Assembly (NCBI GenBank): GCA_043815185.1
Contig: JBDRJF010000024.1
Coordinates: forward strand, 533-64,532
Direction: 5' to 3'
Length of the DNA stretch: 64,000 bases
Source: Candidatus Omnitrophota bacterium
Lineage (GTDB): Bacteria; Omnitrophota; Gorgyraeia; Duberdicusellales; 4484-171
The notes beneath the pieces were generated by a model. The model was not told the origin of the DNA, did no database searches, and saw only the letters and a list, made by a program, of their open reading frames with translations. Below, one piece after another: positions 5,798 to 60,591 of this stretch. Within the stretch, counting starts at the first letter, position 1; each line of letters opens with the position of its first letter. The translations under genes were made by a program, and so were the position numbers.

Positions 5798-6833
5798 TTG
5801 CTTTTAAAAACTTTTTAAATTCCAAAAACTTAACCTTAGCTTTACCGCTGTCTATTAACTCTGCCCCCTTTCTGACTCCCTGTTTGAAGTTAGTCACCTT
5901 TCCTAAAATATAAAAACAGGCGCTCACATTAGCTAAGACAATATCCCGGGGAGCTCCGGATTTTCCATCTAATACAGCTTGTATAGTTTTAGCGCTCATT
6001 TTTACATCTTTAACTAGTAAATCCCCTAGTTTAATCCTTTTTAAACCAAAACTCGCAGGACTTAAAGTTAAATTACTTATTTTCTTATTATTCAAAAACG
6101 CTACTCGGGTTGGCCCGGTGAGTGAAATTTCATCCAAAACATCTTTGCCGCAAACGACAAAAGCCTTTTTTACTCCCAATCGCTTTAAAACTCGAGCTAA
6201 CAATGTAGTCAGATTCGGGGAGTAAACCCCTAAAAGCTGGTAGTTAGCAAGAGCTGGATTGCAAAGTGGGCCCAAGATGTTAAAGATTGTCCTTACTCCC
6301 ATCTCTTTTCTTATCTTAGCTACTTTGCCTAAAGCTGGATGGTATAAAGGCGCATAAAGAAACCCGATACCTACTTTCTTTATTGCTTCTTCCATAACTG
6401 AGGCTGGAACCTCAATATTTACCCCCAAAGCCTCGAGAACATCAGCACTTCCGCAATTTGATGACATCGCCCGATTCCCATGTTTAGCTACCTTTAGGCC
6501 AGCGGCACTGATAATAAAAGCAGTAGCAGTAGAAACATTAAATTTATTTAACCCTGAACCGCCGGTACCGCAGGTATCGATAATTGGCTCACTCATATCT
6601 TTTATCCCTAAAAACCCTCCTCTTACATTTAACTTCTTTGCTTGAGCCCTAACTACAATAGCGGCAGCTGAAATTTCATCCTCGCTTTCACCTTTCATTT
6701 TTAAAGCAGTTAGAAAAGCTGCGATTTGTGAAGGGGTAGCCTGGGAGTCAAAAATCTCTTCAAAAGCCGCTTTCATCTGGTTAAAAGAAATATTCTCACC
6801 CCTAGTCAATTTAATGATAGCTTCTCTAATCAT
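5790..6833 (-). CDS. trpD: Anthranilate phosphoribosyltransferase
   Basis: 347 aa with DTCGTGGSG and KHGNRA motifs. Confidence 0.95.
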   Translation of the reverse strand: MIREAIIKLTRGENISFNQMKAAFEEIFDSQATPSQIAAFLTALKMKGESEDEISAAAIVVRAQAKKLNVRGGFLGIKDMSEPIIDTCGTGGSGLNKFNVSTATAFIISAAGLKVAKHGNRAMSSNCGSADVLEALGVNIEVPASVMEEAIKKVGIGFLYAPLYHPALGKVAKIRKEMGVRTIFNILGPLCNPALANYQLLGVYSPNLTTLLARVLKRLGVKKAFVVCGKDVLDEISLTGPTRVAFLNNKKISNLTLSPASFGLKRIKLGDLLVKDVKMSAKTIQAVLDGKSGAPRDIVLANVSACFYILGKVTNFKQGVRKGAELIDSGKAKVKFLEFKKFLKANA

Positions 6834-16991: not shown

Positions 16992-17828
16992 TTATTTTTC
17001 TTGGGTAATAAGCGAAATAGCTTTCAGAGCGTCTCCGAGTTTGTTTTGTGCAGATAAATAATCTTCTTTATCTATGTAATCTAAAGCATTTTTGGCGCTG
17101 GTAAAGGTCTGTTGCCTTAAAAAGAGTCTTCTTGCTTGTTTATAAAGACTTAGAGTTTTGTTTAACAACTGATCATCAGAAGGATTTATTAAAAATACTG
17201 TTCCAAACTCCTTTACCGCGGCTTTATAATCTTTTTCTCTAAAGGCCTTATTGCCAATACGAAAATGAAGCTTTGCGTCTTTTATTGACTTTAAGCTTTC
17301 CTCTTTATTCTTTCTAATAATCTCATTAGACAATATTGCTGCTTTTTTCTCTATTATTCTCTTCCTAACTTCAGGAAAGGTCCCTAATTTGAGAAGATGT
17401 TGACTTGAAACCTCCCGCCAGTAATCCCCTTCTCGGCCTAATTCATATCGTTTCTGCCAATAACGAGTAGCGTTATCTATATCGCCTCTCTTCTCGTAGA
17501 TAAATGCTACATTAGTGTATGCCGGTAAATATTCCGGGTCTACCTTTAAGGCTTTTTGATATGCTTCTAAGGCCTTATCATTTTCACCAAGAGTCTCATA
17601 AATAACTCCTATATCATTATAGGCTTGAGCAAATTTAGGGTCTAGCTGAACAGCCTTCTGATAGTAACTTAAAGCACCCTTTAGGTCACCTATAGACTGA
17701 GCCCTCTGGCCTTCTTCCCGATAGTCTACAGCAGTCTCTTTAGTGAGAGGTTCGGCTAGGGAAAAAAGCAAGGGAAAGACGCACAGGAAGATTACAAGGA
17801 AGATCCTCATCGACTTTAACGATATCAT
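16992..17828 (-). CDS. Secreted TPR-repeat protein
   Basis: 278 aa with an N-terminal signal-like hydrophobic segment and several A..Y..AL..DP TPR units. Confidence 0.8.
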   Translation of the reverse strand: MISLKSMRIFLVIFLCVFPLLFSLAEPLTKETAVDYREEGQRAQSIGDLKGALSYYQKAVQLDPKFAQAYNDIGVIYETLGENDKALEAYQKALKVDPEYLPAYTNVAFIYEKRGDIDNATRYWQKRYELGREGDYWREVSSQHLLKLGTFPEVRKRIIEKKAAILSNEIIRKNKEESLKSIKDAKLHFRIGNKAFREKDYKAAVKEFGTVFLINPSDDQLLNKTLSLYKQARRLFLRQQTFTSAKNALDYIDKEDYLSAQNKLGDALKAISLITQEK

Positions 17829-17926
17829 AAATAAGCAGTTATGTCAAGAAAATTCCCTTATTCCTTGAGGTAAATATGCTCTATTTCCGAAAAAGCACCG
17901 CCGTAAATAGCCGGGTAAAGATTGCC
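17796..17926. repeat. Direct repeat copy A (about 131 bp) flanking the radical SAM insertion
   Basis: It aligns by eye to 19732-19861 with about 9 mismatches and 1 indel. It contains the real 5' end of the TPR gene plus a dead copy of the last 22 codons of the binding-protein gene. Confidence 0.85.
17858..17926 (-). pseudogene. Orphan 3'-terminal fragment of the ABC substrate-binding protein gene
   Basis: It encodes GNLYPAIYGGAFSEIEHIYLKE*, compared with the intact C-terminus GNLYPTIYGGAFSEIEHIYLKE* at 19793-19861. No upstream coding continuation exists. Confidence 0.8.
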
Positions 17927-18044
17927 AAAAAGATGAAACTCTATTATGGGAGATGTGTCTAATTTCTTAAATTTAGTGATACGGTCGGCTAGCTGTTCAC
18001 GACGCAGTGGCGCCGCCTTCATTCCTTATTTGAATACTTTCTTA

Positions 18045-19619
18045 TTATTTCTTTCCATTATTTTTTTTCACTTTGATTATGAAGCCCAACGGCCCTCCAT
18101 CATGGAGGCTGCTTTTATAACGAAGCATTGAAACAATTTTAGACACCACGGCCTTTTCCATGCGAGGATTTAGCTCATATGCCAGGTGTGAAAACTTGCA
18201 TAAAACGTATATTACCCACCTTTTAATTGGCGAACGATGAAGAGAGAGAAGATTTCTTTTTCCGATTAAAAAAGCCATTTCTTTTACCTTTTTTTTGTAG
18301 CTCTTTTTATACTTGAAAAAGATATCTTCCCAAACATATGTGTCATCATATAGATGGCGTTGGTAAAAAGTACTATGCTTATATGGATCTTTAGCGTTTT
18401 GATGAATTTGTATTCCGTAATCTTGGCACTCATCCCTTAACCACCATTCATTAAAACCGTATTCGTCTTTATACATTCTATAAATGTCGCTACCCGGATA
18501 TGGCACAAGTGAACCCGAACCTTGGTAGATATGAACTTGGTTGAAATGTTTGCGGATATATTTAATATTGTTATTGACTGCGGACTCGTTTTCCCACGGA
18601 AACCCCGTCATCAAATTAACATAAACGCGAAAACCGGCATCCCGCGCATAATCAACTGCCTTATGGGCCTGTTCTAACGTAATACCTTTACGGACCCTTT
18701 TAAGCGTTTCGGGATCGGCGCTTTCAATTCCGTAGCCCATCATGTAACAACCGGCTTTTTTCATCAGCGCAAATAATTTAGGATCCGCCATATTGGCGCG
18801 CGTAGCACAATTCCATATTATGTTAAGCTTACTTTCTATTAAGGCTTCACAAAAATCTTGGACATACTTTTTACTGGCGGTGAATGTATCGTCTGCGATT
18901 ACGAAAGATCCTACATTATACTTTTCTTTACGTTTTTTTATTTCTCTGATAATGTTTTCGATCGGTACATATCTGATTCTCTGCCCGAAAATTGCGCGAT
19001 CGCAAAAAGTGCAGCTCGCAGGACATCCTCTAGAACAATAAATCCTATGAAGGCCCTTTAACAAGCCGCTGGAAAGACGGAAGCGTTCGTGATCAAAACA
19101 CGTAAAATCAGGTTCGGGTAAATGTGCGAGGTCCGATATATATTCCCGTCCGCTATTATGATATATTTTCCCGTCCGGGCCCCTAAAACTAATCCCTTTG
19201 ATTGATTCTAAGGATAGATCTTTTTTACCATTCCAGTAATCGCATAATTCTGCGAGCGTTAACTCGCCTTCGTTGCGGACTATAATATCAACTCCATTTT
19301 CCAATACCTCTTCTGGATATGAGGTGGGATGTGCTCCTCCTGCAATTATTTTTATGCCTAATTTTTTAATTTTAGCGATTGTTTCATAAATACTCTGAAT
19401 GTGAAAAGTTGTAATATTAAAACCAACAAACGACGGTTTGTAGTCTTCTGCGATTCTTACAAAATCGTTGCTTTCTAAAAAATTATTAAATGTGTTGACC
19501 ACTGCCTTTACATCGTATCCCTTCTGTCTGAGAACAGCAGAAAGATATGCAAACGCTATTGGCATTTCAGATATAGGGTTAGGAAAAATTAAAAGGCCTT
19601 TTTTATCTGCTTTCAGCAC
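18045..19619 (-). CDS. B12-binding-domain radical SAM protein (class B-like)
   Basis: 524 aa with GTG start and AAGGAG SD. It has an N-terminal Rossmann-like B12-binding region and the CPASCTFC CX3CX2C motif. Confidence 0.85.
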   Translation of the reverse strand: MLKADKKGLLIFPNPISEMPIAFAYLSAVLRQKGYDVKAVVNTFNNFLESNDFVRIAEDYKPSFVGFNITTFHIQSIYETIAKIKKLGIKIIAGGAHPTSYPEEVLENGVDIIVRNEGELTLAELCDYWNGKKDLSLESIKGISFRGPDGKIYHNSGREYISDLAHLPEPDFTCFDHERFRLSSGLLKGLHRIYCSRGCPASCTFCDRAIFGQRIRYVPIENIIREIKKRKEKYNVGSFVIADDTFTASKKYVQDFCEALIESKLNIIWNCATRANMADPKLFALMKKAGCYMMGYGIESADPETLKRVRKGITLEQAHKAVDYARDAGFRVYVNLMTGFPWENESAVNNNIKYIRKHFNQVHIYQGSGSLVPYPGSDIYRMYKDEYGFNEWWLRDECQDYGIQIHQNAKDPYKHSTFYQRHLYDDTYVWEDIFFKYKKSYKKKVKEMAFLIGKRNLLSLHRSPIKRWVIYVLCKFSHLAYELNPRMEKAVVSKIVSMLRYKSSLHDGGPLGFIIKVKKNNGKK

Positions 19620-19731
19620 AGAGATACTCCTTCTTTTCGATGGTTAAACCTTTTTCTAAGAAAATCTATGTTTTTCTGTTCGTTCTCCGTCAACTTTTTT
19701 TCAGGATGACTCAATGCTTTTTCAATGGGCA

Positions 19732-19861
19732 AAGGAAGATCTTCATCGATTTTAACTTTAGCATAAATAAACAATTATGTCAAAAAATTCCCTTATTCCT
19801 TGAGATAAATATGCTCTATTTCCGAAAAAGCACCGCCGTAAATAGTCGGGTAAAGATTGCC
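19732..19861. repeat. Direct repeat copy B (about 130 bp)
   Basis: It contains the real 3' end of the binding-protein gene plus a dead 17-codon remnant of the TPR gene start (MLKLKSMKIFLCPLKKH*). Confidence 0.85.
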
Positions 19862-21529
19862 GAACTTGTTTCGCACCGCATATATCGAATAAGGAATCGC
19901 AGTATAAACAAGCGGTAACTCTTGGGATGCAATTTCCTGCCAACGGGCAAATAAAACCTTTCTTTCCTCTTCATCCATAATCCGGGCAGTTTGATTAAAA
20001 ATATTCTCGATTTCTATCTCATATTGATCTAAAGGTTCCTTGCTAAGATTCCACATATGTAGATTTCCCTTATAAGACCAGACATTCTTGCCAAAGTAAG
20101 GCTCAACCCCGCCGGTAAGCCCGATTAGAATCATTTCCCAATCAAGAGTAGCTGTCAATTTACTCACCAAATTATTAAAGTCAAGAGGCAGAAAGTGTAT
20201 TTTTACCCCAATCGTCTCTAAATCCTTCTTTACCAGGGTGGCAATTTGAACCCGTTGGGTATCATTGGCGTTAGTAAAAAAGATAATCTCTAAGGCCTTG
20301 CCCGCTTCATCTTCCAGGACCCCATCCCCGTCTCGATCAATAAAACCTATTTCGGATAAAAGATGTTTTGCTTCTAGGGGGTTATAAGAATGCTGCTTAA
20401 CTTTATCGTTATAATAATAGGTGTTGGCCGGGCTCAGTGGAGAATACTGCGGTATTCCCAACCCATTCATTAGAATATCGATGATTTTCTCCCGGTTTAT
20501 AGCGTAAGCTATTGCTTTTCGGAAATTCCTGTTCTTAAACCAGGCTAACTTATAAGGTTCGATAAACGGTTTTTTGGTATGCGGGTTGGTGCCTGGGTTT
20601 TGGTTAAAAACTACAAAGTTTGAACCCAAAGAGGGGCCAGCATTATAAATTGAAAAATTACCTTTATCTTGGTCCGGACCTAAAATACCTAAATCTTGAG
20701 GTCTTACAGAGTAGTAGTCGACTTCTTTCTCTAAAAATTTTAAAAGAGCGGTGTCAGGGTTAGGCACTACTTTAAAAATTACCGCTTCTAAATATGGTAA
20801 ACTCCTGCCGCAGGTATCTTTCTTCCAGTAAAAAGGATTTTTTTCTAAAACTACTCTTTCACCAGGAAAGTAACTTTTGAGCCTAAACGCTCCGGTTCCG
20901 ACAATATCTTGAGGTTTTGAATCAAGCCCCAAAGCAAAAGAAAATTTTCCCCTTTCAACTAAACTAGCATATTTATGTCGGGGGAGAATATCGTGGGAAA
21001 GAGCCCGGAGAAAAGGAGCAAAGGTAAAGGGGAGGGTAAATTTTACTGTATGGCTGTCAATTTCTTCAACTACTATCTCTTTTCCATCAATAGTAAAAAT
21101 ATCTCTACTGCTGGTAGGAATATCGGGGTTGTAAATTAAATCTTCAAAGGTAAAAACCACATCCTTAGCAGTGAACTCCTCTCCATCATTCCAAAGAATA
21201 CCCTTACCTAAGTGAAAAATCCACTCCTTACCATCAGAAGTTTCCCATTCTTTGGCTAAATTGGGCATAACTTCTAAGGTTATCGGGTGGGTACGGGTCA
21301 AACCTTCAAAAATATAGCCGGTAATCTGGGTAGTTGAGGTCTCTTGAGCAACTATCGGATTGAATGACTTGGGGTCTGAAATAGCCGGAAGAATTAATTC
21401 CCCTCCGGCTTTCCCGCAACTTATTTGATAATCATTATAAAGATTTTTAAAAAGGCCCTTGGCCTCAACGGGAAAGCTCAAAGTCAAGCTACTGATTATT
21501 GTAATTAAAAATAAACTACTTTTCTTCAT
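19793..21529 (-). CDS. ABC transporter substrate-binding protein, family 5 (peptide/nickel type)
   Basis: 578 aa with a signal peptide. The SBP_bac_5-like pattern includes LTR, W.DG..FTA.DV.F and NP.YW. Confidence 0.85.
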   Translation of the reverse strand: MKKSSLFLITIISSLTLSFPVEAKGLFKNLYNDYQISCGKAGGELILPAISDPKSFNPIVAQETSTTQITGYIFEGLTRTHPITLEVMPNLAKEWETSDGKEWIFHLGKGILWNDGEEFTAKDVVFTFEDLIYNPDIPTSSRDIFTIDGKEIVVEEIDSHTVKFTLPFTFAPFLRALSHDILPRHKYASLVERGKFSFALGLDSKPQDIVGTGAFRLKSYFPGERVVLEKNPFYWKKDTCGRSLPYLEAVIFKVVPNPDTALLKFLEKEVDYYSVRPQDLGILGPDQDKGNFSIYNAGPSLGSNFVVFNQNPGTNPHTKKPFIEPYKLAWFKNRNFRKAIAYAINREKIIDILMNGLGIPQYSPLSPANTYYYNDKVKQHSYNPLEAKHLLSEIGFIDRDGDGVLEDEAGKALEIIFFTNANDTQRVQIATLVKKDLETIGVKIHFLPLDFNNLVSKLTATLDWEMILIGLTGGVEPYFGKNVWSYKGNLHMWNLSKEPLDQYEIEIENIFNQTARIMDEEERKVLFARWQEIASQELPLVYTAIPYSIYAVRNKFGNLYPTIYGGAFSEIEHIYLKE

Positions 21530-29161: not shown

Positions 29162-30370
29162 ATGCCTCTGCCCACAATCCAATCTATTGCCTGGGGAATA
29201 ATCTTAAGTTATGTTTTCTTCCGCCCATTCATAGCTGAATCCACTTTCAGTAAACTAGATATAACGCTTAACGGATTGCTGCTACTGGCTTGGGCCGGCT
29301 ATAGTTTAAAAAGGCAGATAAAAATAAGGCTAATTGACAAAACAATTCTTATCTTTTTCTTAAGCCTGCTCTTATCAACCATAAATTCTAATAACATAGT
29401 TGTTAATTTAGCTCAGATATACAAATATCTGTCACTGATAGCTGTATTTTATATTATCCGGCTCTCTAATCAAGAAGAGCAAAAGCAAATATTCTATGCT
29501 TTAGTAATTAGTGCTTCATTGGTTGCTTTATATAGCCTGCATTTTCTTTTTAATATCTCAGGATTTACCCTAGAATACCTTTCAGAACATAATATACGTT
29601 ACCCCTTCGCAAAAGAATTCTTAGCATCTAAAAGAGCTTTTGCCCCTTTCTTTTCTCCCAATCTTCTTGCCGGATATCTCATTGCAATAATAATGATTTG
29701 CCTGAACACAATCGTTAAAAGAAAAGAAGAAAAAGACTGGCTGTTCTTCCTAAGCACATTTTGTTTACTTATGAGTTCACTGGCATTATTTTTCACCAAA
29801 TCTGTGGGAGGCTGGTTTATTTTTATTATTACTTTCTCCCTATTTATACTCTTGGGAAAATTACTGAATAAGAAGAGCCTTATGATAGCATTTTCTTTAA
29901 TTGTACTCTTAGGCGCCATCGCCGTGAATAGAACACTGACTGAGGTTCACTTCAAAAACCCTTTATTTTCGTTGAATCAAAGAATATCTTATTGGAAGGA
30001 AACAATAAAAATTATCGCAGACCACCCCATAATCGGCGTAGGAGTGGGCAATTTTTCCCTGAAGGAAGCCCGGGCTGCCCATAACTCCTATCTTCAGATA
30101 TGGGCAGAAATGGGCATCTTGGGAATAGTGAGCTGGCTGGTAATTGTTTTTGTATTTATTAAACAGGGGGTAAAAAATCTTTATTCCCGAAGCGGTTATT
30201 GCTGCCTAGGAATCCTGACTGCAGGGCTATCTTTTCTCTGTTATAATCTGATTGATTTCAGCTTTTTTATATCGCAAGTTGCTTTCCTATTCTGGCTACT
30301 TCTGGGACTCACCGTAAAATATGCGGATACCGCTGATTGTTTAAGAAGAGCCCCGAGCGATAAAAACTAA
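29162..30370 (+). CDS. O-antigen ligase / O-antigen polymerase family (Wzy_C) membrane protein
   Basis: 402 aa, polytopic, with a periplasmic loop motif AHNSYLQIWAEMGILG typical of WaaL/Wzy_C proteins. It is the only convincing plus-strand gene. Confidence 0.8.
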   Translation: MPLPTIQSIAWGIILSYVFFRPFIAESTFSKLDITLNGLLLLAWAGYSLKRQIKIRLIDKTILIFFLSLLLSTINSNNIVVNLAQIYKYLSLIAVFYIIRLSNQEEQKQIFYALVISASLVALYSLHFLFNISGFTLEYLSEHNIRYPFAKEFLASKRAFAPFFSPNLLAGYLIAIIMICLNTIVKRKEEKDWLFFLSTFCLLMSSLALFFTKSVGGWFIFIITFSLFILLGKLLNKKSLMIAFSLIVLLGAIAVNRTLTEVHFKNPLFSLNQRISYWKETIKIIADHPIIGVGVGNFSLKEARAAHNSYLQIWAEMGILGIVSWLVIVFVFIKQGVKNLYSRSGYCCLGILTAGLSFLCYNLIDFSFFISQVAFLFWLLLGLTVKYADTADCLRRAPSDKN

Positions 30371-31321
30371 CCTTACTGAAAATAAAACCGCTAAGAAAAC
30401 AAAAGTCAAAAATAAAATATTCATACCAAAAACAAGAAAAACTCCGCTTACTCCCCATAACAAAGTCACAAAATAGACACTGAATAAAGCCGATTTAATA
30501 TTTTTACCGGAGAAAAGCAAATGGAGAAGAATGTGGTCATTACTTTTTCTCAAAGGCACTATGCCTTTTTTGATACGGATAATAATAAGATAGGCGGTGT
30601 CGATCAGCGGAAAAGCTAAAATAAATAACGGCACAAAAAGAACCAATGGATTCTCCAAGGTGGCATGGTCCCCGTACATACTTAGTGTGGCAAATAAAAA
30701 ACCCAAGAAGTGACTTCCAGCGTTACCCATTAATATTCGTGCCGGAGGAAGGTTAAAAAACAAAAAAGATAAAAGAGCCCCGCAGAGGCTGGCAAATAAT
30801 CCCGCTAATATATAGTCGCCGCTGGCTATTGATATGATAAAAAACGATACTGCCACAATAAAAGATACCCCGCCACACAAACCATCACCAATGTCTAAGA
30901 GATTAAATACATTTGTTACACCCACTATCCAGAGAAAAGAAATAATATAATTTATCCAGCAAGGAAAATAATAGATGTCGACTTTTTTACCCTTAATGAG
31001 AAATACTGCCACAATAAGCACCTGAAGAAATATTTTGGTAAAAAGAGTTAACTCCCGTAAATCATCCAAAAACCCAAAAATCCATACCACAGATGAAAAA
31101 ATAAGTATATGCATTAAAGGGCCGGGGATTACACCGTTCCTGTACTTAGAAAAAACCAAAAAGATGAGCATAAATGAGAAAAATAAACTAACTCCTCCGA
31201 GAACAGATTTATTTTCGTTATTGCGGAAAAAAGAACTCTTAAGGCGCTTATTGGTTAATATCCCTAAAAGAAGAAATCCTACGATAAAAGATAATGGAAA
31301 AAAAGTTAGGTATGGTTTCAT
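30341..31321 (-). CDS. Polyprenyl-phosphate N-acetylhexosamine-1-phosphate transferase (WecA/MraY, GT4-family initiating enzyme)
   Basis: It is polytopic, with NVFNLLDIGDGL and NAGSHFLGF motifs. I place the start at ATG 31321..31319, which overlaps the upstream TGA as TGATG. The track start at 31378 is a likely over-extension. Confidence 0.85.
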   Translation of the reverse strand: MKPYLTFFPLSFIVGFLLLGILTNKRLKSSFFRNNENKSVLGGVSLFFSFMLIFLVFSKYRNGVIPGPLMHILIFSSVVWIFGFLDDLRELTLFTKIFLQVLIVAVFLIKGKKVDIYYFPCWINYIISFLWIVGVTNVFNLLDIGDGLCGGVSFIVAVSFFIISIASGDYILAGLFASLCGALLSFLFFNLPPARILMGNAGSHFLGFLFATLSMYGDHATLENPLVLFVPLFILAFPLIDTAYLIIIRIKKGIVPLRKSNDHILLHLLFSGKNIKSALFSVYFVTLLWGVSGVFLVFGMNILFLTFVFLAVLFSVRLVFIARGSS

Positions 31322-32442
31322 CAGTTTAGCGACTGGTAAAGTTTTTCTGTTTCTTGAATCATTCTCGCCTGAGACCAATAACTCATGTTGATATTTTCCC
31401 TCTCTTGTTTAACTATTTTATTCCAATGCTTATAGTTACGCAACAAATCTTTACAAATTACCGGCATTCTTTCTAAATCATCCAGTTCGACTACTTTTCC
31501 CTGTTTATTATTCTCTACGATATCTAAAACACCCCTCGTGTTGGTTATAACCACAGGAATCCCGCTTATTACCGCCTCAATCAGGGCGACTGGCAATCCC
31601 TCCCATAACGAGGTCAGCACAAACAAAGAAGCCTTATGATAAAATGGGTAGACATCTTTATTCCAACCGGTTAGGATTACTTTCTGCTCCAGCCCCAGGG
31701 CTTTTATTCTCTTCTTAAGCTGTTCCCGTAACGGGCCATCACCAATTATATAAAATTTTGTCCGAGGTAATTCTCCACTCAGACAACTAGCAATCTGTAA
31801 GAAATGATTCAACCCCTTTTGGGCTTTCAATGCTGAGACAGTAATCACTGAAGTCTCTCTAGCAGAGAAGTTTTTTCTTTCTTCATATATCTTCTTAAAA
31901 GATTCCACATCGACACCGTAGTGGATCAAAGTTAATTTCCTTATGGAAGCCACTTTCTTTACCACAGCTACTGTAAAATCAGCTTGAGACACAACAATAA
32001 TTTTCTTGGTAATTAAAGAACTTACTTTCTCTAAGATAAAATATAACCGATATACTAACCGGTTCATGAAACGGTGGAAAGGCCACCCATGAACTGTATA
32101 TATAATATTGCGTGAACCAGCAAAGAATGCGGCCCACCGGCCTAAAACAGAAGCTTTGGGAGAATGGGTATGAATAAGGTCAAATTTATTTCTCCGGATA
32201 TAAAAATATAGTTTGGCAAAAGCAATAAAGTCATAAATTGGGTTTATTCTTCGTGTCAGTTCCGGTATTAATTTTAGATTTAAACGGGAAAAATTCACAA
32301 ATTCTTCTTTAAGATAACCGCAATCCCCGGCACATAGGTATAAAGAATACTCATCGGGGTCGAGTTTCTTTATAAGGGAAAGTAACTGCTTCTGAGCCCC
32401 ACCCAATTCTAAATGAGTGATTACAAAAAGGACCTTCTTCAT
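31321..32442 (-). CDS. Glycosyltransferase, GT4 family (GT-B fold)
   Basis: 373 aa with the N-terminal LGGAQ motif and the C-terminal EGLPVALIEAVISGIPVV (E-x7-E) motif. Confidence 0.85.
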   Translation of the reverse strand: MKKVLFVITHLELGGAQKQLLSLIKKLDPDEYSLYLCAGDCGYLKEEFVNFSRLNLKLIPELTRRINPIYDFIAFAKLYFYIRRNKFDLIHTHSPKASVLGRWAAFFAGSRNIIYTVHGWPFHRFMNRLVYRLYFILEKVSSLITKKIIVVSQADFTVAVVKKVASIRKLTLIHYGVDVESFKKIYEERKNFSARETSVITVSALKAQKGLNHFLQIASCLSGELPRTKFYIIGDGPLREQLKKRIKALGLEQKVILTGWNKDVYPFYHKASLFVLTSLWEGLPVALIEAVISGIPVVITNTRGVLDIVENNKQGKVVELDDLERMPVICKDLLRNYKHWNKIVKQERENINMSYWSQARMIQETEKLYQSLN

Positions 32443-33551
32443 TATCCGACGATATCAACGATTTTATCTTGATAGATCTTAAAACATAGGCTATCAGGAA
32501 TATAAAGTTTACTTACGCGATTGGCTGCTAGTCTGTCTCTTGGCTCAAAAAGCGCTTTTGATACTTCCTCGATAGTATAATCAGATCCTGAACCGAATAT
32601 TTTGTAAACTTCCTTCAACCCGCCGCTCTTAGGATAAAAAGTCTTCTTACCAAAAGCAAGCGCTTCTGCTACGGCTATACCAAAGGGCTCTTCCCTTCGG
32701 AAAGGAAATACGCAGATGTCACTTAAAGACAATATCTTATCAACATCTTCTCTGAATCCTAAAAGAAAAACATTTTTGAGATTATTTTTTTTGATTATTT
32801 CCTCAATTTTTCTTTTATAACAACAGCTTTTTGTGGTTAAGAAAGAAATATCCCCCACAATAAGCAAAAATAAATCTTGCGAACTAGCTAAAACATCCAG
32901 AAAGTCTTCAATGAACTCATATTGCCCTTTTAGGGGGTGAATACGAGAGACAATTGTAACAACCGTCGCTTCAACAGGAAGATTAAACTCCTTTCTGGCT
33001 AATAAATAATCATGTATTGTATAGTCATCGGGGCTTAAAGGCTCATAAACTATACTGGCTCCATTTTTGATGGAAAACTTATCGCTGATTGCTTTCGACT
33101 GACAGATTATTTTACTTGCGAACATTTTAACAAATAATCCTGAGATTTTATTTAATAGATTCTGTAAAAAAAACTCCCTTAGATACCAGATATGTTCCTT
33201 GTTTGTAATTTTTGCAATAATTCCCGGAGAAAACAAAAGCAGACTATTGGTGCAGATTATATCTGTTTTGCTGAAGCTAACATAAAAAACAAAATAGATG
33301 ACGTTTAAGATAAAAAGCAAGACAGTTTTAATAAGATAAACCGGTGACCAAGAAGCAGTTAATATCGGCAGTGGAAATATTTTTATCTTGATATCGGCGG
33401 AAATATTTTTTAATCTTTCCGCCAAAAGGCCTCTTTTGGGTAAAACTACGGTAACAGAGAATTTGTCTTTTATCGCTTTAACAAAATTTATTACTCCTCT
33501 TTCTGCTCCGTATAGGGAAGACCCGGCATTGAAAATAATAATTCTTTTCAT
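32442..33551 (-). CDS. Glycosyltransferase, GT4-like (GT-B fold)
   Basis: 369 aa with the EPFGIAVAEALAFG E-x7-E-type motif. Confidence 0.7.
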   Translation of the reverse strand: MKRIIIFNAGSSLYGAERGVINFVKAIKDKFSVTVVLPKRGLLAERLKNISADIKIKIFPLPILTASWSPVYLIKTVLLFILNVIYFVFYVSFSKTDIICTNSLLLFSPGIIAKITNKEHIWYLREFFLQNLLNKISGLFVKMFASKIICQSKAISDKFSIKNGASIVYEPLSPDDYTIHDYLLARKEFNLPVEATVVTIVSRIHPLKGQYEFIEDFLDVLASSQDLFLLIVGDISFLTTKSCCYKRKIEEIIKKNNLKNVFLLGFREDVDKILSLSDICVFPFRREEPFGIAVAEALAFGKKTFYPKSGGLKEVYKIFGSGSDYTIEEVSKALFEPRDRLAANRVSKLYIPDSLCFKIYQDKIVDIVG

Positions 33552-33553
33552 TA

Positions 33554-34297
33554 TTAGTTTTTGCTCAATTTCTTCCTAAATAATCCGTACATTCTGCCAA
33601 AACATAAAATAATTACCCGAAAAAAAGCCTCGATAATTATCCCTAATGACATCTTGGATTTTTCATGCCTTCGGCCTTTAAATATTATCGGATACTCTAT
33701 TATTTTAAACCCTTTTAAAAAGGTGCGATAGACCATCTCAACCTGGAAAGCATAACCCTTAGAAATAATATTATTGATACCAATTTCCTCAAGCACATTG
33801 CGTTTCATGCATTTGAATCCACTGGTTAAATCATTCACAGGCACTCTCAGTAATATCCGGGAAAATATATTAGCGAATCTGCTCAATAAAATTCTGGTAA
33901 GCGGCCAGCTAGACACTCCGCCACCCTTAATATACCTGCTTCCTAAAACTAAACTACAATCAGAAAGCAGGTTAATTATTCCGGGGATAGACCGGAAATC
34001 ATGAGATGAATCAGCATCCATCTGAATTATTACATTATATTCGCTGTCTAGAGCATACTTAAACCCTTCGACATAAGCACCACCCATCCCTAAGCGGCGT
34101 TGTCTTGTTAATAAAAATAACCTCGAGTATTTTTTTTGTAACCCGGCCACTCTCTGCGATGTCCCATCGGGTGAGTTATCATCCACGACCAGTATAGATA
34201 AATTAAGTCCTAAAGAAAAAATATTTTCAATAAGAAAGGTAACATTGCCCACTTCATTGTAGGTAGGTATAATAACTATTATCTCTTTTCCGGGCAT
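33554..34297 (-). CDS. Polyprenyl-phosphate sugar synthase (Dpm1/GtrB-like GT2)
   Basis: 247 aa with IIPTYNE..N, VVDDNSPDGT and a DAD..H motif. It has a C-terminal hydrophobic tail as in GtrB/Dpm1-type enzymes. Confidence 0.85.
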   Translation of the reverse strand: MPGKEIIVIIPTYNEVGNVTFLIENIFSLGLNLSILVVDDNSPDGTSQRVAGLQKKYSRLFLLTRQRRLGMGGAYVEGFKYALDSEYNVIIQMDADSSHDFRSIPGIINLLSDCSLVLGSRYIKGGGVSSWPLTRILLSRFANIFSRILLRVPVNDLTSGFKCMKRNVLEEIGINNIISKGYAFQVEMVYRTFLKGFKIIEYPIIFKGRRHEKSKMSLGIIIEAFFRVIILCFGRMYGLFRKKLSKN

Positions 34298-34425
34298 ATT
34301 GTATTAAGCTTATATCCTAATCTGCGTGTTTTGTGATATTAGCTTGATAATTTAAGGGCTGGCATTTCAAACATTCACTCTATTTTATAATATCGCAAAA
34401 AACTATTAGCCCGCTGTCTTAAGAA

Positions 34426-35392: not shown

Positions 35393-35399
35393 AACATTC

Positions 35400-38480: not shown

Positions 38481-39965
38481 TTACTGCTTACTGATCAATA
38501 ATCGATTTTTCAGCAATCCCTTTAAACAACTAGAGAATCGTGCCGGATAAAGCCTGAAATAACAACTGTAAATTTCCCAATAAAAATTAGCATAGGTAAA
38601 AAATCGGTTTCGTGCTAATTTTAACAAGAATGCCACGATAAAATAAAGAAACGGAAATCCCACGATTATTGGAAAAAGCTTACCTAGATTAGCAGTGTCT
38701 CGCCGTTGCCGATCTTCCTTGACCGCCGGTTCCCCGACCCGCAAAAAGGAGAGCTTTCGTTTAAAATGCCCCGAGGCACTCACAACAAGCTTATTTAATA
38801 AACCTATAGAAGCCGGGGGATGAAAATCGGCAAATTTCGCATAATTTCCTTCACTTACTCCCGAATCACTGCCGACGTTAGTTCCCGGATACGCCGCCAG
38901 TAATCCAACTTTGGCGTAATCAACCTGGCACTGGATATTTAATTTAAGCGTCTTTAAATCTGACGATAATGAACCACCGGGGATGCCAATTATATTAGTG
39001 CCAATCAATCTTATGCCGTTGGACTTTAAGAGTTTCGCTTTCTTTATAATCTCCTGGCTTGTCATATCGCGACGCAGAATGTCTTTCCGCAAACCATCAT
39101 CACCTGTTTCAATGCCAAATAGTACCGTATGACAACCAGCCCTTGTTAAATAGTGCACAATCTCTTGTGTAATGAGATTAATCCGAACGTAACAAGAAAA
39201 AGGAATATTAACTTCTTTACGATATTTTACCGAAAACTCTTTAAGCCAATCCGGCAGAAGGATAAAGATATCATCTACAAATAAAACAAACTCAACCGCT
39301 ATCTTCTCTTGCGCTTGCTTAATTTCTTTAATCACATTGTCCACGCTGCGGCGCCGGTACTTCCGTGCCACGTCTTTATATAAAAGATCGGTTGCTCTGT
39401 TATGGCAGTAGGGGCAGCTATAATCACAACCTCTGCTTGTCATTACTGTTATCCTGTTGTAAAAAAACGGCGACTTTTGGGTAAAAAGACTTCGGTCAGG
39501 AAACGGTAAAATGTCCAAATTACCGATGAGGGAACGCAAAGGATTTCGATATATCTCTCCGTTTATTTTGATCCATAAATTCTTTACCCGGGTTATATCT
39601 TCGCCGTTATCCAGATGTTCAACCAATTCTACAAGGGGGTATTCTCCTTCCCCTATACACACAGCATCAACCCCTTCTCTCTCAATAATATCAGGACATC
39701 CGGTTGGATGATGCCCTCCGAATATAGAAAACGTATTGCAGTCATTCTTGATTTGTTGATTCAACTCTAAATAATAATCTGCATAAAAAGATGGGGTACT
39801 ATAGGCTAATAGCGTAGGAATATTGTCCTGCAGCTTACTTTTTACTACCTTATATTCTGCCTTCACTAATTCGGTTGTATGCCCCTGCAGTCTAAGCATA
39901 CTCGCCAAGTACATCGCACCCAAATTCTCATCCTCTATTTCTTTAAAAGGGAATAAAACTCTCAT
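38481..39965 (-). CDS. B12-binding-domain radical SAM protein with C-terminal membrane segment
   Basis: 494 aa with an N-terminal B12-binding-like Rossmann region and CDYSCPYC. A hydrophobic stretch PIIVGFPFLYFIVAFLL lies near the C-terminus. Confidence 0.85.
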   Translation of the reverse strand: MRVLFPFKEIEDENLGAMYLASMLRLQGHTTELVKAEYKVVKSKLQDNIPTLLAYSTPSFYADYYLELNQQIKNDCNTFSIFGGHHPTGCPDIIEREGVDAVCIGEGEYPLVELVEHLDNGEDITRVKNLWIKINGEIYRNPLRSLIGNLDILPFPDRSLFTQKSPFFYNRITVMTSRGCDYSCPYCHNRATDLLYKDVARKYRRRSVDNVIKEIKQAQEKIAVEFVLFVDDIFILLPDWLKEFSVKYRKEVNIPFSCYVRINLITQEIVHYLTRAGCHTVLFGIETGDDGLRKDILRRDMTSQEIIKKAKLLKSNGIRLIGTNIIGIPGGSLSSDLKTLKLNIQCQVDYAKVGLLAAYPGTNVGSDSGVSEGNYAKFADFHPPASIGLLNKLVVSASGHFKRKLSFLRVGEPAVKEDRQRRDTANLGKLFPIIVGFPFLYFIVAFLLKLARNRFFTYANFYWEIYSCYFRLYPARFSSCLKGLLKNRLLISKQ

Positions 39966-41005: not shown

Positions 41006-41013
41006 GGTATGAT

Positions 41014-56900: not shown

Positions 56901-58207
56901 AAGCTCTTGGCCTTAGACCTGAATTCCTCATATAAAGGCGAATGCCATATTTTGGGAAAATCAGCCTCGTAAAGATTGCCTAAAGGGAATTTTTCTGCCT
57001 TACAGCAAGGAACAACGCTCCCGTCGGTTAAAATACGTGCATAATACCACCCCATATAACAAGGAATGGTGTTAATTTGTTTTTCATATATACCTTTCTC
57101 TAAATTAGAATAAAATAATCTCCTCAAGAAAGAACCTATTCCTAACATATTCAGTAATTTTATATCTATTTCCATCTTTTTGTCTAAACAGGCATTCCTT
57201 TCTCCACAATCTTTGCAAACTCTACTCTTAAATTTATACCAAAAAACAACAGGCCGGGTATCTGTGGTGGAAGTAGATTCGGATAGGATAATTCTCTTAT
57301 TTGCTATATTACGCCCTTCCTTGCACACTAAAGAATTACAGTACCTATCAACATAAAAACCAGCTTTATGATTTTTCCAGATTTTACCAAAATCAAGAAA
57401 TTCCTCGTCTGCATACTTACTTAAAGCAGTCCCACGGGGCGTATTAAAAGGTATTAGACTATTTTGCTCTCTTATTTCTTTCAATTGTTTTATTGTCCTT
57501 TCCTTATCATCACCCGCAAGAGATAAAGAATCTGTTTCGCCCGGAATAATATCTATAACTTGGAACTCCACTGAATCGCCATCTACCTGTTTAGCAAACT
57601 CAACCATATTTTCTATATTGTTACAATTTTTGCTGCAAATTACATTATATAATTTCAGATGCGGTTTTAAAGAACTCCCCTTTTTCTTATAAAAAGCCAG
57701 TCTTGTTAAATTATTCGTAATTTTTTCAAAATCTATTGCTGTTTTTTCGGGATGAGTTAAAGCGTATACCGCAGAATCACCAGCCCATATACTTGCTGTG
57801 ATTAAATCGACTTTACACTTAACAAGTAGCATGGCTATTTCTTCATTGATTAATGTAGCATTTGTAATTATGTTTAAATACATGCCTTTTGATTTAATTA
57901 TTTTTATCACTTCTTTTATCTCCGGGTATAAGAAGGGTTCGCCTGAACCGGATAAAATTACTTCCCGTATCCTTAAACCGGATAAATCCTTTATTAATTT
58001 TTTAACCTTCCGAAACGGAAGCTGCTTCTCGTTTTTCGCGAAAACCTCTTTCCTGCCAATCAAGGGAGAATGAACCCAACACCCAATACAGGTGCTATTA
58101 CATTTATCAGTTAAGTCTATCTGAACGGTATGCGGCCCACAGAATGCCTTCCTTCCATCTTTAATGCCGGCAGATATTCGCTTCCAAATGTTTATATCTT
58201 CTCTCAT
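53912..58207 (-). CDS. Triple radical SAM/SPASM-like polyprotein with embedded CBM-like beta-sandwich domain
   Basis: 1431 aa with three homologous modules. Their cores are VQIDLTDKCNSTCIGCW (aa 28-44), VQIDLTNNCNNSCIACW (aa 672-688) and VVVDITNRCSLKCISCW (aa 1082-1098). Each is followed by SGSGEPF/TGGGEPF and by a PCY.GW...R....G.V.PC...C..(S/E)CD tail. The region aa ~480-605 has a CBM6/35-like pattern. Confidence 0.85.
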   Translation of the reverse strand: MREDINIWKRISAGIKDGRKAFCGPHTVQIDLTDKCNSTCIGCWVHSPLIGRKEVFAKNEKQLPFRKVKKLIKDLSGLRIREVILSGSGEPFLYPEIKEVIKIIKSKGMYLNIITNATLINEEIAMLLVKCKVDLITASIWAGDSAVYALTHPEKTAIDFEKITNNLTRLAFYKKKGSSLKPHLKLYNVICSKNCNNIENMVEFAKQVDGDSVEFQVIDIIPGETDSLSLAGDDKERTIKQLKEIREQNSLIPFNTPRGTALSKYADEEFLDFGKIWKNHKAGFYVDRYCNSLVCKEGRNIANKRIILSESTSTTDTRPVVFWYKFKSRVCKDCGERNACLDKKMEIDIKLLNMLGIGSFLRRLFYSNLEKGIYEKQINTIPCYMGWYYARILTDGSVVPCCKAEKFPLGNLYEADFPKIWHSPLYEEFRSKAKSLPKSDKYFSKLNCIKSCDNWGMNLKIHKRFKQEESAKAGRINTAHTIGIKAKNFIRGNLNANCRHSFGKGIVIDGGTGGSYAEYGVWIAKMGKYSLYAKYACDDFRPVDIYIDNKLIKKDGLACVTGGWTSKYLKWNKEVDIVLDKGEHILRIQSRDVIPHIEKFIITKKERLVSIAVNEVSSSYFSFIKKIILKKGFKTALKKIRKNLKMSYLKDRYLEMLGIYDKEYGYKGPFHVQIDLTNNCNNSCIACWCNSPLFKVPRLSKEEKEQYLPLEMVKELLDEISCVGATEVYFSGSGEPFMHPQIMEVLEYTKRKNLICHVNTNFTLLNKERLDRLINIGVDFLTVSTWAATADTYVKTHPGRSSQDFYKIKENLIYLNSRKKDKPYIKLYNVIFNMNYFEAQGMVEFAGEIKAESLEFTVVDTMPGATDTLSLNEAQLKQLHGSCIEIQSRLDKQNKFKKNGVLIFQFDQFLRRISVSSDAKQAKYDRNIIDNMPCYIGWLFARVIPNGQVHSCLKAHRIPTGSLYLNRFFEIWNSEKQEYFRNKTLTYKKDDPFFRLIGNDPKIEEAGCYKSCDDIGRNTWMHNRMQLLSFSEKVLLRCTANILKIARKLIFSREKSYMEYDKNPVIAGIIHGRRAFTGPEQVVVDITNRCSLKCISCWLYSPLLNKDKPSQEWLGKELPKDRLFRLIEDLASLGTKKIRFTGGGEPFIYADLMEIIEFAREKQLQVAITTNFGLVSKKQIKKLIDLNLEELCVSIWASTPKIYSQVHPGTSFAYFEKLKENLFYLKETRRNKPRITFANVMMSSNHHDFKGMYEFGLQYGADALYFTIADVFAGQTDKLAMNDEERKNVLNNSLEIKERSKKDNIHLEFFDGFLSRLAQSDADFRKGQYDRFTVDQIPCYAGWTFTRVLADGNIVPCCRGVKKIMGNINNKLFEEIWFSDQYNEFRSKAKYLPKSNVYFNDIACAKECDNLMHNQTTHKIITSGGAGKREP

Positions 58208-60591
58208 AATTTCCCTATAAACTTTCGCCGATCAAATGAAAAATAATTTAAATAATCCCTTGTTTTCTTAAAAGCCGCTCCTAAACTATAATTCTGCCAA
58301 TAATTAAAAAATTTTTTTATATCGCCTACGAGGCCTCTTTTCTTTCTTTGGTGGTCTGCCCATAACCTATAAGCATGTTGTTTAGCTTCTTCTAAATCAG
58401 CGGGAGAAAGATTATCTGGCTGAAAAACACAGCTGTAGTGGCCGTCATACCTAGAGAAATCTTTAGTTAAAATTCTGCCGCTTTTATCTAATGCCTCAAA
58501 GAGCGCTGTCCCTGGAAAAGGCGTGACTATTGAGAACTGTACAGAGTGAGGATCTAATTTTAAAGCGTAATTTATGGTATTTTTGATTGTCGCTTTTGTT
58601 TCTCCGGGAAGGCCAAACGAAAAAGTCAAATGGACATTTATCCCTAATAATTTAGTGTATTTAATTATTTTTTCTGTCCTTTTTAAATCCAAACTTTTCC
58701 CGCAGTTATCTACTAACTCCTGTGAGGCACTCTCTACCCCATATTTTACTGCATGCAAACCAGCCTCTTTCATTTTATCCAGAATTTCTTCGTCCATTAA
58801 ATCTGGTTTTGCCATAATAGCCCAAGGAACACTATGCAAATCTCTCTTGATAATCTCATCACATAATCTTATCATCCTGTCTTTACCTACATTAAAGGTA
58901 TCATCATCGAAATATACAGATTTAAACCCCTGTGTGGAAATTAAGTGTTCCATCTCGTCCACTACATCGTTTACATCTCTTGTTCGATAAACCTTGCCTC
59001 CAAAAAAGACTTGGGGCCATAAACAAAAGCTGCAACTAAAGGGACACCCCCGGGAAGCAATCATTTGAGCCGAAGGGTGAGGAATATCCCCCGGTAAATC
59101 CCAGTATTTTTCCATCGGAATATCTTTTCCACGATAAGGCCAGGGTAATGAATCTAACTCCGTTGGTTCCCGGGAGCAGTTTTTAACTACGGCTCTATTT
59201 TGATCTCGCCAAATAAGGCCTTTTATAAAAGAAAAATCTTTTTTACCCTGAGAAATAGCTTTGACTAATTCAAGCAGAGTAATCTCATACTCACCGAATA
59301 AAACGAAATCAACGAATTCGTTCCCTGCTAAAAATTCTGGTTTGTAAATTTCCGGATGCGGCCCGCAGAGAATTACCGGAATGTTTAAGGGAGATATTTT
59401 TCTTAATATCTCCCTATCATAATAAAAAGAAGGAACGGAAGTTTCTGTGACTAAAATATCGAACTTCATCCGAAATAAATTATCAACGAACTCATCTTCA
59501 GTAGTTGCCTCGGCAATAGCATCTATTACCTTAACTTCAATATTATTTTTTCTCAGAAGAGCGGTGGCGTAAGCCAGAAAAAATGGAAAAGGTAAGTAGT
59601 TATTTTCGCTTTTGTCTTTGATGTGCGGCCAGCGAGAACCGGCTCGCACGCCCCAGTCTCCCTGCCTTTGCCAGGGGAAATTAGCTAATAACACTTTTAG
59701 CCTATTTTTTGAGCTCCTGTTTTCTACCTTTTTCCTTATTGCCGCCCTGAAATGATTTCGCCGTAAAGCTTCTATTTTTTGGTCTAGCAAATTATCGTTT
59801 TCAAATAAATTTATCATCCCAGAAAAAAGATGATAATGTCCCGGGCCATATCTTTTTTTATCATTAAAATTCATATATTTAAAACCCACAAAATAGGCAT
59901 CAATATTTAAAGGCGGGCGTTGGATGAGAGCAAATATTTGCTCTTTACCATTTCGGCACTTTAATGCCAATGGAGGTAAGGACTTGCCTTCTAGAGGAAA
60001 CCTTACCCCTGTTAACGAAGTAGAAAAGTTTTCCAGGCAGATATCTTGCCAATCGTTATTTTGACGCGGAAAATCTTCCTGTCGAGAATTATGAAACCAA
60101 GTCTTATACCCGGAATTGAGCGAGCAAACTACGCGAAACTCATCAATCGACAACCACTCTTCCATTTCAATATCTATATTTAAATAAAGACACTCGTCTA
60201 TTATTTTTACCAGCCAGATTTGGCTTAAAGGTAACTCTCGAAAAGTTACTTTGACCCTAAAATTATATCGCCCTCTATCCAAAATTTGCCAATCGGCTTT
60301 TGTTGAATCTGTCCATAACCCTAAGGTATTAATACTCGCGTTCAGGCCCGGTCCTGTGGTAACTTCAAGGCCATTCCAATAAATATTTATTCCGGAATCA
60401 GAACAAACTACCTTAAGATTTCCTTTGGTGATACTATAATTGACCATTTGCTTAAATTCAGCCTTTTGCCTTTTTACCAAAGGCTTTCCTGCTAAGAAGA
60501 TAAAATATTTAATCCCCCTTCTAAGCGCATAAAATAGGCTATCAGCTTTGAGATGCTGTCTGAATTTTCGATAATTAATTTTAAGGTTCAA
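58204..60591 (-). CDS. B12-binding radical SAM enzyme with N-terminal copy of the Wzt-extension repeat domain
   Basis: 795 aa. aa ~52-270 is homologous to the four repeats in 60581..64000. aa ~297-450 is B12-binding-like, and CPFSCSFC lies at aa 516-523. Confidence 0.85.
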   Translation of the reverse strand: MNLKINYRKFRQHLKADSLFYALRRGIKYFIFLAGKPLVKRQKAEFKQMVNYSITKGNLKVVCSDSGINIYWNGLEVTTGPGLNASINTLGLWTDSTKADWQILDRGRYNFRVKVTFRELPLSQIWLVKIIDECLYLNIDIEMEEWLSIDEFRVVCSLNSGYKTWFHNSRQEDFPRQNNDWQDICLENFSTSLTGVRFPLEGKSLPPLALKCRNGKEQIFALIQRPPLNIDAYFVGFKYMNFNDKKRYGPGHYHLFSGMINLFENDNLLDQKIEALRRNHFRAAIRKKVENRSSKNRLKVLLANFPWQRQGDWGVRAGSRWPHIKDKSENNYLPFPFFLAYATALLRKNNIEVKVIDAIAEATTEDEFVDNLFRMKFDILVTETSVPSFYYDREILRKISPLNIPVILCGPHPEIYKPEFLAGNEFVDFVLFGEYEITLLELVKAISQGKKDFSFIKGLIWRDQNRAVVKNCSREPTELDSLPWPYRGKDIPMEKYWDLPGDIPHPSAQMIASRGCPFSCSFCLWPQVFFGGKVYRTRDVNDVVDEMEHLISTQGFKSVYFDDDTFNVGKDRMIRLCDEIIKRDLHSVPWAIMAKPDLMDEEILDKMKEAGLHAVKYGVESASQELVDNCGKSLDLKRTEKIIKYTKLLGINVHLTFSFGLPGETKATIKNTINYALKLDPHSVQFSIVTPFPGTALFEALDKSGRILTKDFSRYDGHYSCVFQPDNLSPADLEEAKQHAYRLWADHQRKKRGLVGDIKKFFNYWQNYSLGAAFKKTRDYLNYFSFDRRKFIGKL

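Follow-up and report, generated by a model that had tools for sequence, protein, structure and literature searches.

How a single biosynthetic gene can come to lie between two housekeeping genes, bracketed by two copies of the very junction that it interrupts, is the question raised by a locus of the Candidatus Omnitrophota contig JBDRJF010000024.1, of which a stretch of 64 kb (hereafter the window, to whose full length all coordinates refer) was analysed. The gene encodes a B12-binding radical S-adenosylmethionine (radical SAM) protein and stands between the gene of a family-5 substrate-binding protein (SBP) and that of a TPR protein; all genes of this region are on the minus strand, and their order is gap, pgk, tpiA, secG, SBP, R, radical SAM, orf54, L, TPR, polA and glgA, where R and L denote the SBP-side and the TPR-side copy of a direct repeat. 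The comparisons described below identify the structure as an insertion of horizontally transferred DNA. As to the way in which it arrived, we favour, with a probability of roughly 0.6, a homology-guided insertion-duplication (of the Campbell type or equivalent), in which a copy of the target junction would have travelled along with the cassette.

The repeats had been described by eye in the original prediction, as direct copies of about 131 bp with some 9 mismatches and 1 indel, and the formal alignment returns the same figures: when an 8-kb region was compared with itself by blastn, R and L aligned over 131 nt with 92.4% identity, 9 mismatches and 1 gap (E=7.5e-49), the second-best self-match of that region having E=0.48, and no third copy was found within the 64-kb window. 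In a repeat search and in a MAFFT alignment the repeat appears as two blocks separated by one indel, the first of 81 nt and 96% identity (17849-17929 against 19784-19864) and the second of 61 nt and 84% identity (17796-17856 against 19732-19792), and the MAFFT alignment shows the homology ending abruptly on both sides. Each copy contains the end of the SBP gene with its stop codon, a 33-nt spacer and the first 11 annotated codons of the TPR gene; this content was predicted correctly, except that the SBP codons are 23 and not 22. The SBP tail reads FGNLYP(T/A)IYGGAFSEIEHIYLKE, followed by the stop, in both copies. In R the tail is live and runs on from the SBP gene, and the TPR start is a dead one that continues to a stop as MLKLKSMKIFLCPLKKH. 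In L the SBP tail is dead and is joined to a foreign N-terminal part of 31 amino acids (aa) in the open reading frame (ORF) orf54 (17858..18022), and the TPR start is live, at the ATG at 17828 or at a second ATG at 17810. This distribution of live and dead parts agrees with the earlier description, and because a copy of the junction segment flanks the insert at either end, neither the SBP gene nor the TPR gene is disrupted. Between the two copies, no ORF other than the radical SAM gene matches a protein family and no recombinase-like ORF is present, while the repeat search detected no inverted repeats bracketing the insert; integrases and transposases are equally lacking between or around the copies, as had been stated at the outset.

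Related genomes show the site without the insert. A scan of the genome collection with the SBP yielded 25 loci with the Omnitrophota-type tpiA-secG-SBP synteny, and in at least seven relatives (L001, L003, L006, L008, L020, L025 and L040) the SBP gene is followed directly by TPR-polA-glgA; apart from lineage T (see below), the site is empty in every examined relative that keeps the SBP-TPR synteny. Among the seven is the closest relative, L040, whose polA is 90.9% identical in nucleotides and whose host genes differ from those of the window by 0.21-0.31 synonymous substitutions per site (dS). These empty sites, which the original prediction had proposed to look for, identify the window structure as an insertion.

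The same insert at the same gene junction was found in a second Omnitrophota lineage, here called lineage T, which is represented by nine contigs from independent samples (the MAG, or metagenome-assembled genome, assemblies L002 and L132, and the seven JGI contigs L121-L127). Between the two lineages the insert is 96% identical and the flanking genes about 76% (Table 1), the dS being 0.108 for the radical SAM gene and 1.42 for the SBP gene, so that the divergence of the insert is about 13 times smaller than that of its hosts; it is also below the divergence between the window and L040. Lineage T has empty-site relatives of its own, L001 and L003, at a dS of 0.42-0.53 from it. Since the insert is far less diverged than the flanking host genes, it has been transferred horizontally, as the interpretation of the repeats as a scar of horizontal acquisition implied, and the ratio of non-synonymous to synonymous substitutions (dN/dS) of 0.17 between the two radical SAM genes indicates purifying selection since both copies diverged.

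Table 1. Position of the features of the insertion locus in the window and, where available, their nucleotide identity to lineage T.
Feature	Coordinates	Strand	Identity to lineage T	Description
TPR gene of the host, intact	16992..17828	-	72% (TPR start)	TPR families; probable lipoprotein or secreted protein; orthologues directly after the SBP gene in relatives
L, TPR-side repeat copy	17796..17929	-		dead SBP tail 17858-17929 in orf54, promoter-like spacer, live TPR start
Promoter-like site, L copy	17819..17847	-		TTGACA-17-TATCGT with TG extension; predicted native TPR promoter
Foreign inserted segment	17930..19731	-		1802 nt; common with lineage T from 19727 downwards
Downstream remnant	17930..18044	-	92.2%	115 nt; 67% GC patch and 31-aa N-terminal part of orf54; not a conserved ORF
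B12-binding radical SAM gene, intact	18045..19619	-	96.4%	524 aa, GTG start; CPASCTFC corresponds to the CX3CX2C motif
NeuB-like 3' end remnant	19620..19727	-	93.5%	without SAF domain; ends …IEKALSHPEKKLTENEQKNIDFLRKRFNHRKEGVSLC before the stop, which overlaps the radical SAM start
R, SBP-side repeat copy	19732..19864	-		live SBP tail 19793-19864, spacer with promoter-like site, dead TPR start (leader ORF 19764..19711)
Promoter-like site, R copy	19755..19783	-		TTGACA-17-TAAAGT with TG extension; the radical SAM start lies about 135 nt further downstream
SBP gene of the host (family 5), intact	19793..21529	-	75.8% pairwise, 75.5% codon-aligned	PF00496, E=1.5e-80; synteny tpiA-secG-SBP-TPR-polA-glgA in relatives
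secG-tpiA			76.6%	

The availability of two hosts allows the two ends of the insert to be examined separately. The junction between the insert and the SBP tail (the right junction) is nucleotide-identical in both hosts (…ATAGAG[TC]TTCATCT[TC]/TT[TC]GGCAA…, the stroke marking the junction), and, falling at the same nucleotide in both, it has been inherited. The left, TPR-side junction is different: in lineage T the SBP-side copy reaches approximately TPR codon 100, where it meets a NeuB remnant of 160 nt, whereas in the window R stops after …ATCTTCCTT (TPR codon 5/11) and is followed by TGCC, a 4-nt filler (19728-19731) at the NeuB-remnant end of the insert that is absent from the shared segment, and then by a NeuB remnant of 107 nt starting from 19727. 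The length of the repeat accordingly is 134 nt in the window and about 400 nt in lineage T. The two copies of lineage T differ at 3 positions, at which the TPR-side copy has the state of L001 and L003 and the SBP-side copy is newly mutated (one of the changes creates a TAA), so that this duplication is of host type and young, with 0.9% divergence in its dead part; as the SBP tail of lineage T is only about 80% identical to that of the window, the repeats of each host are its own.

In the window the composition of the two copies is less uniform. R and L differ in 11 columns of the alignment, 3 of the 72 in the tail and 8 of the 62 in the spacer and TPR start, and over the latter stretch L is identical to the empty-site L040 at 62 of 62 positions. 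At columns 114 and 123 (and at 113) a derived state is common to L and L040, R having the state of the outgroups; at columns 76 and 133 the derived state is shared by R as well. Two or more reversions among 7 random substitutions would be expected with p=0.007, and from this polarity of the columns it follows that the spacer of R (45-mer TTTTTTGACATAATTGTTTATTTATGCTAAAGTTAAAATCGATGAAG) would stem from a sister lineage of the window-L040 group and not from the window's own spacer. The dead SBP tail in L has only one unique change, against 7.6-11.2 expected if the duplication were older than the split from L040 (p=0.004-0.0002), and the duplication is therefore not ancient. Taken together, these findings suggest that the event was recent and that a related donor contributed, along with the insert, the distal part of R at least.

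Regarding the cargo, gene fragments of the donor's neighbourhood lie on both sides of the intact radical SAM gene; these fragments, and a TPR promoter in the repeat (see below), had been overlooked in the original prediction. The NeuB-like remnant has 53% identity (tblastn, E=1e-10) to the C-terminal end of a PF03102 gene in L128, and the longer remnant of lineage T gives a weak match to the last 30 positions of the Pfam NeuB profile. In L128 (5766-8156) the PF03102 gene is beside a radical SAM homologue of 69% identity, the closest one outside the cassette; it is called as two pieces (144 and 133 aa), has no SAF domain and comes after the radical SAM gene, so that the pairing recurs, in an order opposite to that of the cassette. 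On the other side of the radical SAM gene, the GC-rich flank that had been noticed could be narrowed to a patch of 39 nt with 67% GC (17978-18016), in the top 0.12% of 40-nt windows, which is conserved in lineage T save for a 1-nt deletion. As this deletion breaks its frame in lineage T, orf54 was discarded as a real gene. The downstream region including the GC patch folds no better than shuffled sequences (z=+1.6), Rfam gave no match at E<=1 within 17600-20000, and a search for a terminator behind the radical SAM gene turned up no convincing one. The composition of the insert (GC 38%, GC at third codon positions 37%) is that of its host, and the donor was probably another Omnitrophota-like organism. 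With its three parts, namely the NeuB-like 3' end, the intact radical SAM gene and the remnant of about 115 nt, the insert is a predicted fragment of a nonulosonic-acid-type glycan operon acquired horizontally. The source operon should contain a full-length NeuB-like gene without SAF domain, ending in …FLRKRFNHRK.GVS.C and with its stop overlapping the radical SAM ATGCTGA, and the gene downstream of the radical SAM gene in it should begin with MKAAPLRREQLADRI.

According to the reading that we favour, the junction between the insert and the SBP tail would have arisen once, in some other Omnitrophota genome, and the cassette, which has no recombinase itself, would then have passed from lineage to lineage through the host's homologous recombination acting on the junction copy that travelled with it. 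The route would be a single crossover of a circular molecule carrying junction and insert (the Campbell type) or an equivalent recombination of linear DNA, and later gene conversion or deletion within the dead parts of the repeats may have altered the structure; both the recombination route and the circular intermediate are inferred. In E. coli, single crossovers of circular molecules gave duplications of 109-950 bp of the homologous locus (PMC3240628). With this reading one can explain why the repeats are direct, why the host genes are intact and the right junction is inherited, why the R copy is a mosaic and why mobility genes are missing. The Campbell mechanism specifically, which the original prediction had put forward as the integration of a circle with a diverged copy of the junction, is plausible; the mosaic spacer of R is consistent with it, the dead tail of L looks host-like, and both repeat copies of lineage T are of host type.

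Several points, indeed, weigh against insertion-duplication by way of a travelling junction. In the copies of lineage T no donor-type tract lies beside the insert on either side, and since all its repeats are of host type the Campbell model needs a conspecific donor or a complete gene conversion. The TPR-side junction differs between the hosts, which obliges one to assume that the window line later lost about 340 nt of dead DNA; the pattern of junctions in the two hosts is not predicted by a simple one-step Campbell event without additional steps. In the window itself, the dead tail is host-like, has too few informative sites and is not demonstrably of donor type, while the mosaic nature of R is deduced from 2-3 sites, and the uneven divergence of tail and spacer (3/72 and 8/62) was dropped as a proof of mosaicism (Fisher p=0.11). 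Recombination over 130-400 nt at 76-80% identity is expected to be very inefficient, and in the collections searched neither a donor lineage nor the source operon, a third host or a circular form was found.

Part of these difficulties would disappear if the insertion occurred afresh in each host by a one-sided process based on replication or annealing, such as homology-facilitated illegitimate recombination or template switching, an explanation that is the chief competitor of the favoured one but that we regard as rather unlikely. Linear DNA with a short stub of the donor's SBP tail would anneal to the host tail and prime the copying of host DNA, and its far end would be joined illegitimately at a point further along the TPR gene, which entails a host-type TPR-side copy, a conserved right junction, a variable left junction and a duplication of variable length. 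The purely host-type copies of lineage T and the variable left junction are better explained in this way than by a travelling junction, the right junction is the same in both hosts while the left one differs both in target and in insert, and the L copy of the window is wholly of host type. Moreover, there is experimental precedent for the mechanism, which has also been called upon to explain displaced 3' ends of genes in type VI secretion system (T6SS) and Rhs arrays (PMC5361080). It predicts, however, a host-type R copy; the spacer of R in the window is non-host, so that an extra step of homologous transfer is required, and classical events of this kind mostly delete recipient DNA rather than duplicate it (PMC3240628).

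More doubtful is the idea that a recombinase-less mobile unit has been inserted repeatedly at one exact nucleotide where the SBP tail begins in divergent Omnitrophota, with one fixed and one variably truncated end and with a long duplication of host DNA (134 to about 400 nt) that includes a promoter; if true, it would imply a directional, priming-based or trans-acting mechanism undescribed in bacteria, which gives a promoter-less cargo a copy of its neighbour's promoter. Slightly lower still we place the specific version in which a dedicated mobile cassette is inserted by a site-specific enzyme acting in trans (a nickase, a recombinase or target-primed copying) that recognises the start of the SBP tail. 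One end of the insert and the target position are fixed in two hosts that are about 24% diverged, the other end varies both in the insert (107 and 160 nt of NeuB remnant) and in the target (134 and about 400 nt duplicated), and the duplications are of host type. Nevertheless, there is no recombinase, reverse transcriptase or terminal repeat in or beside the insert, whose ends fall inside gene fragments and do not resemble the termini of an element; the R copy of the window is not of host type; and only two hosts are known, so that common descent of the junction explains the pattern more simply. The conventional elements were rejected on similar grounds, a transposon or insertion sequence because of the missing transposase and inverted repeats and of duplications that measure 134 and about 400 nt instead of a short fixed length, and an integrase element with att sites because there is no recombinase gene and because the two hosts have left insert ends some 50 nt apart and repeats of unequal length.

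Vertical inheritance of an ancient insertion, with repeated losses through recombination between its repeats, would be in keeping with the clean pop-out that direct repeats permit, which leaves the empty sites observed, and with the older spacer states retained in R; it is nonetheless highly improbable, given the contrast in dS between insert and SBP gene, the single unique change in the dead tail (p<=0.004) and the at least seven independent losses required. Finally, it can hardly be believed that the structure is an artefact of assembly, arising from a chimeric join or from a contig end present twice, which the original prediction had named among the findings that could overturn it: the window is a single MAG contig and the repeats do break lineage-T assemblies, L002 and L132 ending in them and L121 having 118-nt identical ends accounted for by the repeat, but the copies differ by 8%, the SBP and TPR reading frames are exactly restored, and the architecture is repeated in the nine contigs of the other lineage.

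The duplicated segment carries more than coding sequence. In at least nine Omnitrophota species its spacer keeps the consensus TTGACA-N17-TAnnGT and a TG extension, and in a promoter scan of the 3-kb region four sites matched at 10 of 12 positions, two of them being the spacer sites of R and L, which are also the only ones among the matches of the scan to combine a perfect TTGACA with the TG extension. The spacer at 17805-17847, with its homologues in L001, L002, L003, L006, L007, L008, L011, L020 and L040, has the features of an extended -10 promoter that has been conserved. By these predictions, what was duplicated is the SBP tail plus the putative promoter and the start of the TPR gene, L presumably retaining a promoter for the TPR gene and R probably giving the radical SAM gene one, from which the latter would be transcribed. 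The -10 element overlaps the first annotated ATG of the TPR gene, and the second ATG opens a typical signal peptide (MRIFLVIFLC…); as the spacer is promoter-like, the true TPR start may be the second ATG. Transcription would then start a few nucleotides from it, and the leader of the TPR mRNA may be very short or absent altogether.

The radical SAM gene has a start of its own, GAAGGAG-N8-GTG, in accordance with the earlier description. Its product matches PF02310 with 74.5 bits (cut-off 32.1) and PF04055 with 91.3 bits (cut-off 29.5), and on these domains and its CX3CX2C motif it is assigned to the class B (cobalamin-binding) radical SAM superfamily. None of the NCBIfam equivalog cut-offs is reached, the best score being that of HpnJ (166.9 bits against 577.6), followed here for comparison by BchE (150 against 481) and AprD4 (90 against 500); HpnJ, BchE, PhpK, AprD4 and the other named equivalogs were accordingly rejected, as all scores are far below the cut-offs. 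The nearest solved structures are AprD4 6fd2, 9ccb, OxsB 5ul2. The protein is identical to NCBI MFH1519703.1 (Ca. Omnitrophota), and its 90% cluster, among about 15 billion proteins, comprises only the window type and the T type, the next homologue being 69% identical. Homologues at 64-69% identity come from other genomes, in nonulosonic-acid or polysaccharide loci whose genes include those for NeuB, a CMP-sugar synthetase, a DegT aminotransferase, a flippase and dTDP-sugar enzymes, and a role of the enzyme in the modification of a sugar may be supposed from this context. A metagenome scan gave one moderately close match (L051, 65%), in an unrelated context (a GT39-like membrane protein, a helix-turn-helix protein and a short-chain dehydrogenase/reductase), and a scan of viral contigs gave no close relative of the radical SAM protein.

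Within lineage T, the gene is intact in the seven JGI contigs and is split by a 28-nt frameshifting deletion into 177 and 338 aa in L002 and L132, which makes it dispensable in at least some populations. In the window an 18-nt direct repeat, with its copies 25 nt apart, occurs inside the gene at 19135-19177, adjoining the position of the 28-nt deletion of lineage T (about 8690 in L002, and in L132). The original prediction had also assigned the gene to the same family as the radical SAM gene of the glycan locus of the window. At the level of the superfamily this holds, but there is no close relation: the identity to the genes at 38481..39965 and 58204..60591 is 25.3% and 28.0%, and recent paralogy was rejected on this basis. 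The glycan locus itself (30341-41835) is unusually rich in radical SAM genes for a sugar locus: besides glycosyltransferases of the families GT4, GT1 and GT2, a U32 peptidase and a class I methyltransferase, it encodes one B12-radical SAM protein and two of the radical SAM-SPASM type.

Some observations concern the other loci examined. In L015 (7739-9013), a more distant species, two unrelated genes, for a small lipoprotein and an SPFH/band-7 protein, lie between SBP and TPR without repeats, and no repeats were found at the SBP-TPR junction in L009 and L011; the junction is not an obvious general insertion hotspot. L025 has tandem repeats of the ATCAAG type in the spacer (about 6623-6735). L006 (JAIWAR010000026.1) is labelled as a "Methanosarcinales archaeon", yet it carries the Omnitrophota tpiA-secG-SBP-TPR-polA-glgA synteny, and its core genes are 74-79% identical in amino acids to those of the window (TPR 59%), so that it is probably a mis-binned contig; many relatives, in addition, are labelled as "uncultured Planctomycetia". 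In the MAG of the closest relative, SRP167671_co1_67, the assembly is broken inside the SBP gene, L004 ending at residue 483 and L040 starting at residue 466; the two overlap by 18 aa, about 75 codons upstream of the repeat start, and the break may reflect strain variation at the locus.

The locus is thus a natural case, from a phylum that is uncultured and little sampled, of a single biosynthetic gene crossing between lineages about 24% diverged without transposase, integrase or phage, and landing between two housekeeping genes of which neither was harmed, with the probable gain of a promoter through the duplication of the junction. The two hosts and the empty-site relatives date the event relative to the divergence of the hosts, and the comparison of the hosts separates the junction that was inherited from the other junction and the repeats, which were made anew or modified. 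Scars of insertion-duplication can be searched for in MAGs as markers of gene gain driven by recombination, and they explain why such loci break short-read assemblies. The cargo, coming in all likelihood from a nonulosonic-acid-type sugar locus and being under purifying selection, hints at the diversification of surface glycans.

Among known systems, the encoded enzyme resembles the class B radical SAM enzymes of glycan and natural-product pathways, with which it shares the N-terminal B12-binding domain, the CX3CX2C core and homologues in sugar loci, but it is placed outside every named equivalog. Integrative elements that target the 3' ends of genes, together with their integrase-less derivatives (cis-mobilisable elements), also leave direct repeats that hold a gene 3' end, the gene being restored and the old end displaced; here, by contrast, no integrase is present in or near the insert, the ends are not constant, and the repeats are variable and of host type, with no fixed att core. 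In Neisseria, minimal mobile elements are cassettes located between conserved flanking genes and exchanged by transformation and homologous recombination, and the present locus has in common with them the lack of mobility genes, the housekeeping flanks, the presence or absence among relatives and the flanking homology as vehicle. To our knowledge they have not been described with a duplicated junction, and the divergence between the present hosts is far greater (about 76% nucleotide identity), while the cassette would carry its own copy of the junction.

Homology-facilitated illegitimate recombination (de Vries and Wackernagel, 2002; Prudhomme et al., 2002, as cited in PMC5361080) offers a further term of comparison, since in the T6SS effector-immunity and Rhs arrays foreign DNA is likewise placed beside a conserved anchor, with one conserved and one variable junction, and the dead 3' end of a displaced gene is left behind (PMC5361080). 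At the present locus, however, recipient DNA is duplicated and not deleted, nothing is functionally displaced, and the anchor is on the downstream side. The closest likeness is to Campbell-type integration, as known from suicide plasmids and from conjugation in E. coli (PMC3240628): in both cases direct repeats duplicate the homologous target without a recombinase of the element, the segment spans the end of one gene and the start of the next so that both genes survive, and the duplications of 134 to about 400 nt fall within the experimental range. What differs is that the event is natural, in an uncultured phylum, that just one of the repeat copies, in a single host, shows a hybrid composition, and that a second host exists with purely host-type repeats and a different left junction. 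The locus is best regarded as a new and well-documented natural case of homology-guided insertion-duplication, an event of a kind already known, and not as a new kind of system; its unusual features are the probable capture of a promoter by duplication and the junction shared by two divergent hosts.

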